A stretch of DNA of 61,873 nucleotides, the filler included, from Candidatus Limnocylindrales bacterium (GTDB taxonomy: Bacteria; Moduliflexota; Moduliflexia; Moduliflexales; JAUQPW01), in the NCBI GenBank assembly GCA_035559535.1. It is 4 parts of 3 records of this genome, joined end to end, with 100 filler letters (N's around TTAATTAATTAA, not from the genome) between each part and the next. Parts side by side here need not be neighbours in the genome. Positions count along the whole stretch, not along the records: positions 1 to 23,676 come from DATMBG010000015.1; 3 more parts are not named here. One strand, written 5' to 3'. The notes under the pieces are model-generated. The model did not search any database. It was not told where the DNA came from and saw nothing but the letters and a program-made list of their open reading frames with translations. Of this stretch, positions 6,103 through 11,745 are shown in pieces. The position numbers and the translations under genes were made by a program. How positions within the stretch are numbered: position 1 is the stretch's first letter; each line of letters opens with the position of its first letter.

Positions 6103-7200
6103 TTAGGCAATCCAATCGGCAGGAATCTGGTTTTCTGGGGAAATCTGTACCTCCACGCCGGCTTCGGGATAGCGGAAGATTTTACCCTCATAATTTCTTA
6201 ACAGGTAATCTCCTGTTTGCTCATCATATCCCACGATGGAATCTGGAAGAATAGGGATTTTGCCACCTCCCCCGGGGGCATCGATAACAAAATAAGGTAC
6301 GGCTAATCCGGAAGTATAACCTCGAAGCGCGCTCATGATCTTCAGTCCGACCTCTACTTTGGTCCTGAAATGGTTGGTTCCCTTAGTAATGTCGGCCTGA
6401 TAAATATAGTAAGGCTTCACCCGCATTTTCAAAAGCCCCTTCATCAGGGCACTCATCACTTCCGGGTCATCATTGACCCCTTTTAAGAGGACCGTTTGAT
6501 TTCCCAAAGGAATCCCGGCATCGGCCAGCATCTCGCAGGCTTTTTTGGCCTGAGGCGTCAGCTCCCGGGGATGGTTGAAGTGTACATTGATAAACAGAGG
6601 ATGGTACTTCTTAAGCATATCACAGAGACTTTGGGTGATCCTTTCAGGGAAGGTACAGGGTACTTTTGTACCGATTCGAATAATGTCCAGATGAGGAATT
6701 TCCCTGAGGGGAGCGATAATTCTTTCTAATTTGTCATCGGTCAGTATCAGGGGATCGCCTCCTGAGAGAATGACATCGCGAATTTCCTCGTGCTCGGCAA
6801 TATATTGGATCGCTTTGTCAAAGGCATGCCGGTCTACAAAACCGGGATGGCCTACGCCTCTTTTCCTGGTGCAGAACCGGCAATACATGGTACACTGGAA
6901 CGTAACGAGGAATAAAACCCGATCCGGATATCGATGGACCAGGTTAGGCACAGGACTATCGACATCTTCGTGGAGAGGATCATCGGGACACCCGGTATCT
7001 TGAATTTCCCGAACATCCGGTACTGCTTGAAGCCAGATGGGGTCCCCTGGCTTCTCAATGAGGTTTAAGTAATATTTAGGAATCCTCATGGGATATTCTT
7101 TAATAATTTCCCGGATCTCATCAGGATTAATGTTAAAATATTTAGCCAAATCTTTCTCCGTCACAACGCTTTCAGATAGAGAACGTTGCCAATCTTCCAT
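6103..7200 (-). CDS. kamA: KamA-family radical SAM/PLP aminomutase (lysine 2,3-aminomutase-like)
   Basis: HRYPDRVL, CTMYCRFC (CxxxCxxC), SGGDPL, HFNHPRE, DAPGGGGKIP (PLP lysine). Confidence 0.92.
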   Translation of the reverse strand: MEDWQRSLSESVVTEKDLAKYFNINPDEIREIIKEYPMRIPKYYLNLIEKPGDPIWLQAVPDVREIQDTGCPDDPLHEDVDSPVPNLVHRYPDRVLFLVTFQCTMYCRFCTRKRGVGHPGFVDRHAFDKAIQYIAEHEEIRDVILSGGDPLILTDDKLERIIAPLREIPHLDIIRIGTKVPCTFPERITQSLCDMLKKYHPLFINVHFNHPRELTPQAKKACEMLADAGIPLGNQTVLLKGVNDDPEVMSALMKGLLKMRVKPYYIYQADITKGTNHFRTKVEVGLKIMSALRGYTSGLAVPYFVIDAPGGGGKIPILPDSIVGYDEQTGDYLLRNYEGKIFRYPEAGVEVQISPENQIPADWIA

Positions 7201-7224: not shown

Positions 7225-7704
7225 TCAAAACGTTTTTTGATATGTCACACGATCATCACCCACAGAGTAAAAATCCCTGATTCGTGAGACCTCGACATAT
7301 CCGTTTTTAAGATAAAAATTTCGAGTTTTTGTATATTTGGGTTGAGAGGAAGTCTCAATAAGAAGCATCCGAGCCTGCTTCTTACTTATTTCTTCCTCAA
7401 CTCGCTTTAGCAATTGACTCCCCAAACCAAGCCCTTGTTGAGCAGGATCCATGACAATCCAGTAAAGATCATAGGTTCCCCTGGTAAGGGGAACAGGACC
7501 AAAACAAGCATACCCCATGACCTGATCCTCTGCATCGACAACGCATATAATGCAATAATCCTTCTGCTCTGGATGAAGAAGGTAAATATCTATCAACTCC
7601 AGAGCACACATCACCTCCTCCGGCGTAAACATGCCGGTTGCTTCCAGTATGTTTACGAGCCTTTCCCTGTCTTTGGGTAATAACTTTCGGATCGTCACCT
7701 TCAT
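7225..7704 (-). CDS. GNAT-family N-acyltransferase
   Basis: YDLYWI, QGLGLGSQL acyl-CoA motif, FYLKNGY. Confidence 0.92.
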   Translation of the reverse strand: MKVTIRKLLPKDRERLVNILEATGMFTPEEVMCALELIDIYLLHPEQKDYCIICVVDAEDQVMGYACFGPVPLTRGTYDLYWIVMDPAQQGLGLGSQLLKRVEEEISKKQARMLLIETSSQPKYTKTRNFYLKNGYVEVSRIRDFYSVGDDRVTYQKTF

Positions 7705-8828
7705 GAAGGAAGAATACCACTTCTCTCAGGAGTGGGAATCCTCGAAGAATCACCGGATCGCTCCAACACAAATCCCAGTAACTCCCTGATAAAATCCGTA
7801 TAGGTACGACCGGATTTTAAAATGGATCGTATGAAGCCGGCTTCTGGAGAAATATCCGGATTGGTGTTCACTTCAATTACATAAGGATTAAGGGTTGCAT
7901 CCAATCGAAGATCAATTCTGGCATAATCTCGACATCCCATTGTGTGATAGGCTTTCAAGGCTATCTCTACAATCTGGGTTTCCACTTCCAGGGGGAGTAT
8001 GGCAGGGCAAATGGGTATTGTATTTTGGAATTCGAAACTTTCTTTTACCCATTTTGCTTCATAGCTACAGATCCTATGGAGGTGGGGAGGAAATCTGGAA
8101 AAATCTACCTCCGATAAGGGGAGCACCCTGGCCGGTGCATTTCCAAAAACGGCGGCATTGATTTCACGCCCCTGGATATATTCTTCGATGATGGCAGGTT
8201 GCCGGTATCGATCTAAAATATAACGAACCCGTTGCCGAAGAGCCTCCAAAGAGTTGACCACCGCCCCATTATCGATCCCTAAACTGGCATCTTCATACAG
8301 GGGTTTTACGATAAGGGGAAACGGCAGTTCTTCCTCCCTGAAAACCTGTGTTTCCTCCCGGGAAGAGGAATTACTTAAACTAAGATCAACTTCAAACTCT
8401 GGGGTAGAAAGGACCTGATATTTTGGAACCGGGATTTTATAGGAGGATAAGATCCCTTTGGTAAGGGCCTTATCCTGGGATAATCCAATGGCTAAAGGTC
8501 CGGAACCTGTGTAAGGAATACGGAGGAGTTCCAGTACACCTGCGATATTCATCTGAGGAAGACTTTCTCCACGAAAGCTCTCACAAAGATTAAAGATCAC
8601 GTCAGGATTAAGATCCTGGATCCGGAGTATCAACTCCCCTACATCCTCTTCTAAGGGAATCCTTATACTGGCATATCCAAGTTCCTTCAGACTTCTTTCA
8701 ACGGCTTCAACTTCTTCCAAGACTCCTTCTTCCGAAATAAAATCCCGGGGTTCTCCCTGGGATGTTCCACGTGGAACGTTAAACAGAATACCTATTTGCA
8801 TGTGCATAAGGGGATTTTCAGAGTACAC
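7701..8828 (-). CDS. D-Ala-D-Ala-ligase-like ATP-grasp protein
   Basis: FNLCE, PYTGS, VKP..ED.SLGI, EEYIQGRE, ARIDLR, EVNTNP. Exact start uncertain. Confidence 0.9.
   Translation of the reverse strand: MYSENPLMHMQIGILFNVPRGTSQGEPRDFISEEGVLEEVEAVERSLKELGYASIRIPLEEDVGELILRIQDLNPDVIFNLCESFRGESLPQMNIAGVLELLRIPYTGSGPLAIGLSQDKALTKGILSSYKIPVPKYQVLSTPEFEVDLSLSNSSSREETQVFREEELPFPLIVKPLYEDASLGIDNGAVVNSLEALRQRVRYILDRYRQPAIIEEYIQGREINAAVFGNAPARVLPLSEVDFSRFPPHLHRICSYEAKWVKESFEFQNTIPICPAILPLEVETQIVEIALKAYHTMGCRDYARIDLRLDATLNPYVIEVNTNPDISPEAGFIRSILKSGRTYTDFIRELLGFVLERSGDSSRIPTPERSGILPS
8763..8778. promoter_or_regulatory. Second parS site, inside the ATP-grasp gene
   Basis: TGTTCCACGTGGAACG is a near-perfect palindrome matching parS; encodes NVPRGT. 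Confidence 0.7.
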
Positions 8829-8872: not shown

Positions 8873-9856
8873 CTATTTGACCCATCCATACCTCCTTAAA
8901 GCCTGGTTCAGGATATTTCCGATCAAATCCTTATAGCTCATCCCTACCATGGCTGCGATGAGACAAAGATCACTATGATTAGGACTCATCCCTGGAATGG
9001 TATTCATTTCCAGGAAAAACGGTTCACCCCTCTCATTACAACGAATATCCACACGACCCACATCCCGACACTCCAAAACCCTGTAAGCACCCAAAGCCAC
9101 TTCCTCGATGTGGCCTCTCTTTTCGGGGGAAACCTCGGTATATTCCACCAACTGCCTCCATTCTTCCTTGGCACGAAAACTGTAAACCTTTTTTTCAGAC
9201 GGTCCCTTGACCACCACCTGCATCATCCCAAGTACTCGGGCTTCCTCCCCATTTCCCAGAATAGCCACTGTAAACTCATCCCCTGGAAGATATTCTTCTA
9301 ACAGGACCGGTTGTTTATAGGCCTTGAGCAAAAACTCGACCCTGGATTTCAACTGATCCGGATTATAAATGATTGAGTCCGCTGCAACTCCTTTCGCAGA
9401 CCCTTCATGGACCGGCTTGGCGAAGAGGGGATAACTTAAAGCCACAGAATCCAGGGCCTTAAGGGTGGTTATCTTAATCCCCTTGGGGGTCGGAATTCCA
9501 TTATAGGCCACAATTTGTTTAGCTAGATACTTATCGTGGCATAGGGCCAGGGTTAAAGGATCTGAAAAGACATAGGGAATATTCAGCATCTCCAGAATAG
9601 CCGGAATCTGAGCCTCCCGACTTCTTCCATGAAGACCCTCCGCAAGGTTAAAAACAATATCTACGGATTCCTGCCTTAAAACCTCGAAAATTCTCTCCCC
9701 TTCCCCTATTCGTATCACCTGGTGTCCTAATTCCTCAAGAGCGTGAGATAGCTGCTCAATGGTACTTTCCGAATCAAACTCGGCATCTGCATCCAGGGGA
9801 TCATCGACCCGCCATCTATAATTTTTCCGTAAATTGTAAGTCAGCCCTATTTTCAT
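8873..9856 (-). CDS. D-Ala-D-Ala-ligase-like ATP-grasp protein (second paralog)
   Basis: AEFDS..TI, FNLAEG..GRSREAQIP, KPVHEGS.KG, GRVDIR, EMNTIPG. Confidence 0.92.
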   Translation of the reverse strand: MKIGLTYNLRKNYRWRVDDPLDADAEFDSESTIEQLSHALEELGHQVIRIGEGERIFEVLRQESVDIVFNLAEGLHGRSREAQIPAILEMLNIPYVFSDPLTLALCHDKYLAKQIVAYNGIPTPKGIKITTLKALDSVALSYPLFAKPVHEGSAKGVAADSIIYNPDQLKSRVEFLLKAYKQPVLLEEYLPGDEFTVAILGNGEEARVLGMMQVVVKGPSEKKVYSFRAKEEWRQLVEYTEVSPEKRGHIEEVALGAYRVLECRDVGRVDIRCNERGEPFFLEMNTIPGMSPNHSDLCLIAAMVGMSYKDLIGNILNQALRRYGWVK

Positions 9857-9924
9857 ACCTTCTCTTCCTTATAAATACACCAATACATTGTTAACCATTG
9901 TTTTTGAGGTTACCCACGATTTGA

Positions 9925-10281
9925 TTAGATAGATGAGACTATCCTTGTAGAGGGATGGTCCAAAATACCCTTCCCGGCTTTTAGCCCCAGGAAAGGGTTT
10001 GTTACCGGAAGAAACCGTGTATGAGGCTTAGTAAATAAACTGCGTGTGTAGAGAAATAAAGAGATAACCGTCTGGCTATTTTGGGAGTTTATAAGAAAGG
10101 AAATCCTGGATAATAACCGATTAGATTGGATAGTTCCAATCCCATCGGAGTCTTTGGTTGGATGAGAATGTGTAGAAATACTTGGAGGCTTATCTTCTTC
10201 GGAAGCCTCCAAGCCCTGACTTGGAGGTTTGTCTTCGTTCCCTTCCATACTACCCATAGACTTAGGTGTTCGCTGGTTCAT
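9925..10281 (-). CDS. Hypothetical 118-aa ORF heading the ATP-grasp/KamA operon, with two EDKPPS motifs
   Basis: Open frame between a candidate promoter (TTGACA at 10418-10413, minus strand) and the first ATP-grasp gene. The motif copies differ only at synonymous positions. RBS is weak. Confidence 0.5.
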   Translation of the reverse strand: MNQRTPKSMGSMEGNEDKPPSQGLEASEEDKPPSISTHSHPTKDSDGIGTIQSNRLLSRISFLINSQNSQTVISLFLYTRSLFTKPHTRFLPVTNPFLGLKAGKGILDHPSTRIVSSI

Positions 10282-10545
10282 TTTGCTAAAGTATCCAGAA
10301 TTCTATCAAATGGGTAGAAGCTTAACCGATCCGGTTTTTCTAATTAAGCCCCTAACCCAGGGAGAGTTCTTTATCGAAAGCTTTAAGACAAAAATAATAT
10401 CAAAATAAAAATTGTCAACATTAAATTTATGAATAAATCTTGCAAAGGGCTTAAATTTAAATTACCTTAAATAAGCTTTAAGGTTTCGAAACCCCAAGGT
10501 TTATAAAAACTACAACAACAGAAGTTATTTTCAAATATCTTAACT

Positions 10546-11745
10546 ATGCTTTCCCTAAAAGTTACCGAAGAAGGCTTAACGGCTGTTAAAGGAATTCAGG
10601 TCGCCAGCCGAAGGGCTGGATTAAAGACCCAGGGACGGGATCTGGCCATCATTTATAGTGAGCATCCTGCCCACGCCGCCGCCGTCTGGACAACCAGTCA
10701 AATCAAGGCAGCTTCTCTGCTGACGAGTATCAAGCATCTGGAGAGTGGTAAAGTTCAGGCTATTATTATTAACAGCGGTATTGCCAACACCTGCACCGGA
10801 GAGCGGGGCTTAAGAGATGCCGAAGAGATTACCAGGATCGTCGCCGAAGAACTGGAAATACCCCAGGAAAGGGTGCTTATTTTCTCAACGGGTTATATCG
10901 GAAGATATCTTCCCCTGGAAAAAATAAGAGGCGCCCTAAAAGATATCAAATACGACCTGGATAACTCCCCGGCAGCGAGTCTGGAAGCGGTTAAAGCCAT
11001 CATGACCACCGATACCCGACCTAAGAGGATTTCTGTGAAGGTTCCACTGGGAAACGGAAAAGAAATCACCCTCGGAGGGATGGCCAAAGGGTCCGGGATG
11101 ATTTCTCCCAACATGGCTACCATGTTGGGTTTTATCGCTACCGATGTGGATATCCCTCCGGGACCCCTGAGAAGAATGCTTAAAACCTCGGTCGATAAAT
11201 CCTTTAACATGATCAATGTAGACGGCGACATGGGAAGCGACGCCGTAGTCTTACTGGCCAATGGAACGGAAAGTTTAACAGAATCTGAGATGGCCATCTT
11301 CCAGGAAGCATTGGATTATGTCTGTATTTCTTTAGCTAAGATGATCGTTCGAGATGGCGAGGGAGCCTCCAAACTCATGGAGGTTCGGGTGCGAGGGGCT
11401 GAGACTTCGAGAGATGCGCGGGCAGTTGCTCTATCGGTGGTAAAGTCCAATCTGGTCAAATGCGCGATTTATGGAGATGATCCCAATATCGGGCGTGTCA
11501 TGCTGGTTATCGGAGCTTCAGGTGCCAGGCTTCAAGAGCAGAAGCTGGATATCTACCTGGAAAACATTAAAATGGTTGAGAAAGGGGTTGTCATTGAGTT
11601 TGATCGTTACGAAGCAACCCGCGCCATGAGTAAGCCTGAAATTCAATTCTTGATTGACTTGAATATGGGACAAGAAGAGGCCGTTGCCTGGGGATGCGAT
11701 CTAACCCCCGAGTATGTACGAATTAACTCAGAATACCCGACGTAA
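10546..11745 (+). CDS. argJ: Ornithine acetyltransferase ArgJ (divergent)
   Basis: NSG.AN.CTG, AIMTTDT, AKGSGMI.PNMATML autocleavage site, DGEGA.K, WGCDLT..YV.IN..Y. Confidence 0.9.
   Translation: MLSLKVTEEGLTAVKGIQVASRRAGLKTQGRDLAIIYSEHPAHAAAVWTTSQIKAASLLTSIKHLESGKVQAIIINSGIANTCTGERGLRDAEEITRIVAEELEIPQERVLIFSTGYIGRYLPLEKIRGALKDIKYDLDNSPAASLEAVKAIMTTDTRPKRISVKVPLGNGKEITLGGMAKGSGMISPNMATMLGFIATDVDIPPGPLRRMLKTSVDKSFNMINVDGDMGSDAVVLLANGTESLTESEMAIFQEALDYVCISLAKMIVRDGEGASKLMEVRVRGAETSRDARAVALSVVKSNLVKCAIYGDDPNIGRVMLVIGASGARLQEQKLDIYLENIKMVEKGVVIEFDRYEATRAMSKPEIQFLIDLNMGQEEAVAWGCDLTPEYVRINSEYPT

Follow-up and report, generated by a model that had tools for sequence, protein, structure and literature searches.

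A Small ORF with Two Acidic Pro-Pro Motifs ahead of a Ligase-First kamA Operon: a Candidate Translational Pause Element

What could a small open reading frame contribute when it encodes the same six residues twice and stands between a promoter-like site and an operon of biosynthetic genes? The frame in question, ORF118 (P0001), was placed by ORF calling at 9925 to 10281 on the minus strand of the window, the whole 61.9-kb stretch of DNA analyzed here. The original prediction offered two answers: a precursor or acceptor peptide for the ATP-grasp ligases encoded downstream, or a stalling leader that ties expression of the operon to EF-P or beta-lysine status.

The leader ORF and its operon

Downstream of ORF118, on the same strand, lie four enzyme genes. 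The first encodes ATP-grasp ligase 1 (8873 to 9856) and the second ATP-grasp ligase 2 (7701 to 8828), both assigned as D-Ala-D-Ala-ligase-like by Pfam and structure matches. They are followed by a GNAT acetyltransferase (7225 to 7704; Pfam) and a short-form KamA of the lysine 2,3-aminomutase family (6103 to 7200; Pfam and a match to 2a5h). With the ligases first and the short KamA last, the operon is of a rearranged type. The argJ-carA-carB genes diverge from the leader and the ligase operon on the plus strand. A consensus scan gave a promoter-like site where the promoter had been proposed, at about 10391 to 10418: TTGACA-16-TATTTT is present there on the minus strand and would serve both the leader and the operon. 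No clear Shine-Dalgarno site was found before the ORF118 ATG; about 12 of the 33 genes in the window have one. ORF118 matched no Pfam family, and an Rfam scan of positions 9000 to 11000 at E values up to 1 returned only a chance-level sRNA match inside a ligase gene.

Between argJ and the leader, the promoter-like site sits in a block (about 10375 to 10480) with ~3 differences in ~115 aligned columns relative to G001, a metagenome-assembled genome of a related species. The block is far better conserved in this comparison than the coding flanks. A palindrome (repeat I1, 10471 to 10504) lies inside it, and the block may act as an operator common to divergent promoters of argJ and the leader. Upstream of ORF118, the leader stretch from 10322 to 10364 matches G001:C130:39146-39186 (L083) at 86% over 41 to 43 nt and may be a short dispersed repeat.

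The duplicated motif proved to be as described. The two 18-nt copies that encode E-D-K-P-P-S lie exactly at 10219 to 10236 (copy 1, codons 16 to 21) and 10180 to 10197 (copy 2, codons 29 to 34) on the minus strand, and they differ at two sites, GAC/GAT and AAA/AAG, both synonymous. As a direct repeat (D1), they are 89% identical. Pro-Pro falls at residues 19-20 and 32-33, and both copies read CCU CCA AGU. Absent from the original prediction was the finding that the 8-mer CCTCCAAG is also present inverted between the two copies. It occurs four times in the window, compared with 3.7 occurrences expected, and three of the four are found within 47 nt. Among 540 background ORFs of at least 150 aa, the strict motif, acidic-PP-[SGP], was present in the first 40 residues of one, and the loose acidic-PP motif in the first 40 residues of 12. 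Both the clustering of the 8-mer and the occurrence of the motif exceed chance.

The inverted copy allows two hairpins to be drawn. Its arm (10203 to 10213, minus strand; RNA CUUGGAGGCUU) can pair with copy 2 to give hairpin I4 (arms 10181 to 10191 and 10203 to 10213, 11 nt, 100% complementary, loop of 11) or with copy 1 to give hairpin I6 (arms 10203 to 10213 and 10220 to 10230, 11 nt, 91% complementary, loop of 6). Since this central arm is common to both, I4 and I6 are mutually exclusive. Pairing with copy 2 appears in minimum-free-energy folds of the leader, which folds better than shuffled sequences (z = -3.4), and a C-to-U change in G001 renders the pairing with copy 1 perfect. A consensus scan of the minus strand found no terminator-like site after the hairpins. 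Another hairpin, I2, in the tail of the ORF (10117 to 10148, 14-nt arms, loop of 4), also appears in the predicted fold.

A protein search with ORF118 returned a single relative, P0002, at 88% amino acid identity, and a metagenome scan gave no match. The comparison below covers three sequences of one lineage: those of the window, G001, and P0002. The leader is also present in G001, with 90% nucleotide identity; no stop codon or indel interrupts the ORF there or in P0002. The contigs of X2, X3, X7, and X10 include at least one that is G001-like and give partial cover by a third variant.

Substitutions between the window and G001 were spread evenly over the three codon positions of ORF118 (12/12/13), whereas the pooled counts for six neighboring genes were 74/35/266 (p = 2e-7 versus ORF118). 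Thus, ORF118 as a whole is not under purifying selection at the protein level. The two parts of the ORF differ, however. Codons 1 to 37 (10171 to 10281), which hold both acidic-KPPS motifs and end just past the second one, have eight nucleotide differences from G001 (2/1/5 by codon position), with five synonymous and three nonsynonymous codon changes. In codons 38 to 118 (9925 to 10170), the counts were 10/11/8, with 5 synonymous and 21 nonsynonymous changes. When G001 and P0002 were taken together, 5 of 74 amino acids were changed in the first part and 33 of 162 in the drifting tail (Fisher p = 0.0075). No indels separate the 357-nt ORF from its G001 counterpart, compared with five events in 332 nt of flanking noncoding DNA. 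Within the tail, a 37-nt block (10007 to 10043) is identical in G001 and encodes a stretch that weakly resembles the conserved pre-core block of KamA.

The Pro-Pro motif in long-form KamA proteins

The original prediction placed acidic-PP motifs in the N-terminal extensions of related KamA proteins and proposed a search for such motifs, which bore this out. A search with one long-extension KamA from a relative of G001 returned 120 long forms, 118 of which carry the motif. So do 73 of the 74 metagenome loci with a readable N terminus, out of 80 loci with DNA. The motif reads acidic-PP-[S/G]; its first Pro is residue 13 in 67 proteins and residue 20 in 25 others. Across 44 diverse KamA sequences, P13 and P14 do not vary; the residue preceding Pro-Pro varies (E, D, K, H, Q, or A), and Ser alternates with Gly. 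Some long KamAs contain two to four heptad copies, which are in tandem in P0070, P0077, and P0113. In P0009, Pro-Pro is found at residues 20 and 33, matching residues 19 and 32 of ORF118 in both position and 13-residue spacing. In nearly all operons, the motif sits inside an enzyme of ~440 aa rather than in a small peptide.

In the relatives of G001, which include Candidatus Vecturithrix and Candidatus Moduliflexus (names on identical proteins), kamA comes first in the operon and is followed by two ATP-grasp genes and then GNAT. Named matches of the long KamA came from candidate division KSB3, Omnitrophota, Acidobacteriota, and Deltaproteobacteria. An ATP-grasp homologue follows long kamA at 66 of the 67 loci with room for one; this count includes 15 of 16 rows that a script had tagged as lacking the gene and that were found on reinspection to have it. 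At 54 of 56 loci, no same-strand ORF ends within 100 nt upstream of long kamA, making it the first gene. Loci L160 to L239 and L085 to L091 show the four-gene operon conserved over many phyla, and L200, L203, L205, and L206 have a single ATP-grasp gene only. The papers listed by our searches of open full text included none on a kamA and ATP-grasp operon or on a Pro-Pro motif at the KamA N terminus.

The acidic-PP-[S/G] motif of ORF118 lies near residue 20 and opens its Pro pair with CCU. The ORF stops after 118 codons and has no continuity into the pre-core block, the W-N-D-W-R-W-Q block, or the radical-SAM core. A profile of the 118 KamA extensions matched ORF118 only at an E value of 0.77, with the G001 copy not listed, so that homology between ORF118 and the extensions rests on motif, position, and codons.

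The KamA of the window, for its part, lacks an N-terminal extension: its start coincides exactly with the position of the W-N-D-W-R-W-Q block. It matches the solved lysine 2,3-aminomutase 2a5h at an E value of 3e-116 in an alignment that sets in at chain residue 18. The residues corresponding to D293 and D330, which we take to have a lysine-binding role, are retained. In an unrooted tree with some long branches, it groups with short KamAs (support 100/99), apart from 17 long forms. The suggestion that ORF118 and KamA are a split form therefore holds in part: the motif does stand apart from KamA, but the KamA core belongs to a separate, short-form clade, and ORF118 therefore did not arise by a simple recent split of the present kamA. 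It appears instead to be a motif-bearing 5' module that was kept or reused ahead of a ligase-first operon.

Detached motifs were also sought upstream of homologous operons, with a divided outcome. In G030, a 38-codon upstream ORF (L110, 407 to 523, minus strand) encodes EEPPG (CCU CCG GGU), has its own Shine-Dalgarno site, and stops 8 nt short of a long kamA, which itself has two more acidic-PP motifs. A strict DNA pattern, on the other hand, found no motif upstream of seven ligase-first operons (L002, L003, L011, L015, L086, L092, and L093). We also examined 21 ligase-first loci of Planctomycetota. A conserved block was found in 15 ligases, 11 of which have Pro-Pro in an N-terminal loop; E-PP with CCT as its first Pro codon was present at 5 of 14 Pro-Pro sites, despite a GC content of 64 to 70%. 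The block reads PP-D-[FY]-[FY]-A-E-C-D near residues 25 to 35 of the first ligase at L119 to L133, and the corresponding region of the window ligase is without Pro-Pro.

The motif is constrained at the level of synonymous codons. Over 54 nonredundant loci, the first Pro was encoded by CCT in 39 (8.2 expected; p = 1e-20) and by CCG in 2 (23.5 expected), and the second Pro by CCA in 19 (5.0 expected; p = 2e-7). The next codon was GGT in 19 of 24 loci with Gly (3.9 expected; p = 2e-11) and AGT in 14 of 24 loci with Ser (1.6 expected; p = 2e-11). Glu codons at positions -1 and -4, an internal control, showed no bias. Neighboring synonymous sites are thus saturated, and the constraint is specific to the Pro-Pro-Ser/Gly codons. 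Both copies in the window use the codons preferred by the family.

The position of the motif is also constrained. At 35 of the 54 loci, the first Pro lies at codon 11 to 14 from the nearest in-frame ATG (codon 13 in 19 of them). The stretch between the motif and the catalytic core spans anywhere between 27 and 81 codons. It is the start codon, not the enzyme core, that anchors the motif. A productive +1 frameshift at the motif was considered and rejected: after the motif, the +1 frame runs a median of 22 codons before it closes, compared with 20 elsewhere.

A candidate pause element and its alternatives

Two papers (PMC8129111; PMC12856214) bear on how such a sequence may be read. According to these, no Pro codons are slower than CCC and CCU, the CCC/U-C sequon is counterselected and prone to frameshifting, CCA is used for tuning of pausing, and rare Pro codons limit the copy number of CadC. 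PMC12856214 adds that Pro and acidic residues in MgtL pause or destabilize ribosomes, thereby controlling mgtA, and that acidic N-terminal motifs destabilize early-elongating ribosomes. ORF118 has consecutive Pro codons in an acidic context early in the frame, with slow Pro codons chosen and CCG avoided, where slowness takes its kinetic meaning from E. coli. Judged by its sequence, the element of the window and of KamA has all of these hallmarks of pausing.

We put the chances at about even that ORF118 works in cis as a translational pause element that became detached as a leader ORF before a rearranged operon. It would be a free-standing copy of a conserved acidic Pro-Pro-Ser/Gly element that, in most relatives, forms roughly codons 9 to 15 (or 16 to 22) of long-form KamA, the first gene of the operon. 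The codons of the element, CCU-CCR-RGU, would make up a slow, frameshift-prone Pro pair of a kind normally avoided by bacteria. Since the codons and the fixed distance from the start define the element as much as its residues do, it most likely acts in cis during translation. From these patterns, we infer that ribosomes pause or become destabilized on reaching the Pro-Pro codons near the beginning of the first cistron. How readily they get past would depend on EF-P activity, Pro-tRNA supply, and the ionic or Mg2+ state, and the operon's output would be set accordingly. The window would preserve the element as a leader ORF, with the first 37 codons kept and the other 81 left to drift. The relay to the downstream genes could consist of the two alternative hairpins, formed by the Pro codons and the intervening GGAGG, or of polarity.

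The family-wide occurrence of the motif, the codon selection, the literature, the position relative to the start codon, the place in the first cistron, the detached copies, and the conservation of 37 codons together suggest a pause element. Against it stand the lack of selection on the whole ORF, its confinement to a single lineage, the missing Shine-Dalgarno and terminator-like sites, the profile E value of 0.77, and the seven ligase-first operons without the motif. The codon bias could, moreover, reflect an RNA motif, CCUCCRRGU. In the common arrangement, with the motif inside the enzyme, pausing would act to reduce expression, not to induce it. The idea of a stalling leader, then, gained indirectly from the Pro-Pro-Ser/Gly codon constraint, the anchoring to the start codon, and the upstream ORF of G030, but a specific link to beta-lysylated EF-P found no support.

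EF-P genes are present in the related genomes, but no EpmA/GenX scored over the cutoff in any of five of them (G001, G006, G007, G008, and G041), the best matches being frames of ~500 aa that are probably lysyl-tRNA synthetase. Because no EpmA was found in these genomes, the loop through beta-lysyl-EF-P is unsupported. The EF-P tip loop reads HITPGNWRG in G001 (L156) and in the Planctomycetota genome G041 (L157) and VKPGKGG in the KSB3 genomes G007, G008, and G006 (L154, L155, and L158). As two D-Ala-D-Ala-ligase-like genes are conserved in the operon, its product is probably a ligated beta-lysine compound. It would be a long shot to go further and see acidic/CCU-CCR-RGU as a multiphylum ribosome-arrest sensor that couples synthesis of beta-lysine compounds to the translation state (EF-P, Pro-tRNA charging, Mg2+ or polycation), with the cationic product or a derived EF-P modification feeding back.

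The RNA motif could also be the whole of the element. In that case, CCUCCRRGU, with its anti-Shine-Dalgarno-like core, would pair with sequences of the GGAGG type, located internally or in the ribosome-binding site of the gene itself, and the pairing would govern how ribosomes gain access or what becomes of the RNA; the peptide would be incidental. In the window, the three copies of the 8-mer, two direct and one inverted, do give alternative hairpins of 11 to 12 bp, and the folding score of the leader, the pairing perfected by the C-to-U change in G001, and the constraint on synonymous sites all fit this reading. At 6 of the 54 loci, moreover, the downstream complement fell in the lowest 5% of the locus's own synonymous resamples (the outliers include L174 and L184, where CCCCC is paired with GGGG), and at 14 of 54 the best partner within 160 nt on either side lay where a ribosome-binding site is expected, at -60 to -21 nt. 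Across the family, however, no excess of pairing emerged. The local minimum free energy was -8.09, compared with -8.18 in resamples; the downstream duplex measured -8.95 versus -8.5 (p = 0.25); and upstream GGAGG was present at 15 loci, with 12.9 expected. The partner has no conserved position, the reading frame through the motif always gives Pro-Pro, the acidic residues are conserved although their codons show no bias, and no Rfam family matched. We consider an RNA element of this kind unlikely. A local GGAGG-loop-CCUCC hairpin was rejected as a family feature, its pairing energies being equal to those of synonymous resamples.

ORF118 might instead be a decaying relic, a 5' stub that remained from an ancestral long kamA, functionless after the operon was rearranged and open by chance. 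The uniform 12/12/13 substitutions and the 21 nonsynonymous versus 5 synonymous codon changes in the tail are what such a stub would display. By our estimate, it is not unlikely to stay open by chance through 37 substitutions (roughly one in five), its tail weakly resembles the pre-core block of KamA, and it has no relatives outside one lineage. A relic does not readily account, however, for the better amino acid conservation of the first 37 codons, for the lack of indels next to flanks that have five, or for the retention of CCU CCA AGU in both copies. In addition, the KamA core of the window comes from another clade; a stub would therefore have to be old, and decay would be expected by now. 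These points make a relic distinctly unlikely.

Least credible, and in our judgment improbable, is a motif that works at the protein level, as a substrate, a carrier-like acceptor, or a docking peptide for the ATP-grasp ligases: the strict linkage to ATP-grasp genes (66 of 67 loci), the acidic residues, the tandem heptads of P0070, P0077, and P0113, and weak Pfam matches of ligase 2 to the TTL and RimK families speak for it, but synonymous-codon constraint is unexpected for a purely protein-level motif, the residue before Pro-Pro varies and is not invariably acidic, Ser alternates with Gly, the anchor is the start codon rather than the enzyme core, and the motif nearly always lies within a ~440-aa enzyme. 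The precursor-peptide half of the original prediction is likewise unsupported because both ligases look like D-Ala-D-Ala ligases; among solved structures, they match only D-Ala-D-Ala ligase, VanA, and L-amino-acid ligase.

Throughout a large KamA family, this candidate pause element shows conservation of its sequence, its codon choice, and its position alike. To our knowledge, programmed proline pauses that regulate genes are confined to a few cases in model organisms (MgtL, MgtP, and CadC). The window offers a natural dissection, in which the element stands apart from the enzyme and lends itself to a simple reporter test. This separation argues for a role at the 5' end of the operon and not in KamA catalysis.

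Comparison with known systems

Graspetide precursors and LysW-type carriers are small acidic peptides encoded beside ATP-grasp ligases, and ORF118 resembles them in its small size, acidic motif, and neighborhood. Unlike theirs, its ligases are of the D-Ala-D-Ala type, there are no fixed ring-forming residues, and ORF118 matches no Pfam family. Neither a dedicated peptide-modifying ATP-grasp enzyme nor a fixed core of Ser/Thr/Lys and Asp/Glu, as in graspetides and other RiPP precursors, was found at this locus. The AblA/AblB pathway makes N-epsilon-acetyl-beta-lysine with a KamA-family aminomutase and a GNAT enzyme. The window likewise encodes a KamA-family enzyme beside a GNAT but, unlike AblA/AblB, its operon has two conserved D-Ala-D-Ala-ligase-like ATP-grasp genes.

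MgtL of Salmonella and E. coli, as outlined in PMC12856214, is a short leader ORF with Pro and acidic residues early in the frame, as is ORF118. The two are unrelated in sequence, and ORF118 has 118 codons with a drifting tail and no identified Rho site or attenuator. In most relatives of ORF118, the element is the N terminus of the first enzyme and not a separate leader.

The E. coli protein CadC shares with the KamA element an in-ORF Pro-Pro(-Pro) motif, the slow codons CCU/CCC, and the avoidance of CCG. In CadC, as PMC8129111 has it, the motif keeps the number of protein copies low, and the system becomes deregulated once the codons are changed to CCG. The CadC motif is located at residues 120 to 122, whereas the KamA element lies ~13 codons from the start. 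Finally, the motif of CadC is a feature of a single gene, whereas the one described here is a family-wide element that heads an operon.
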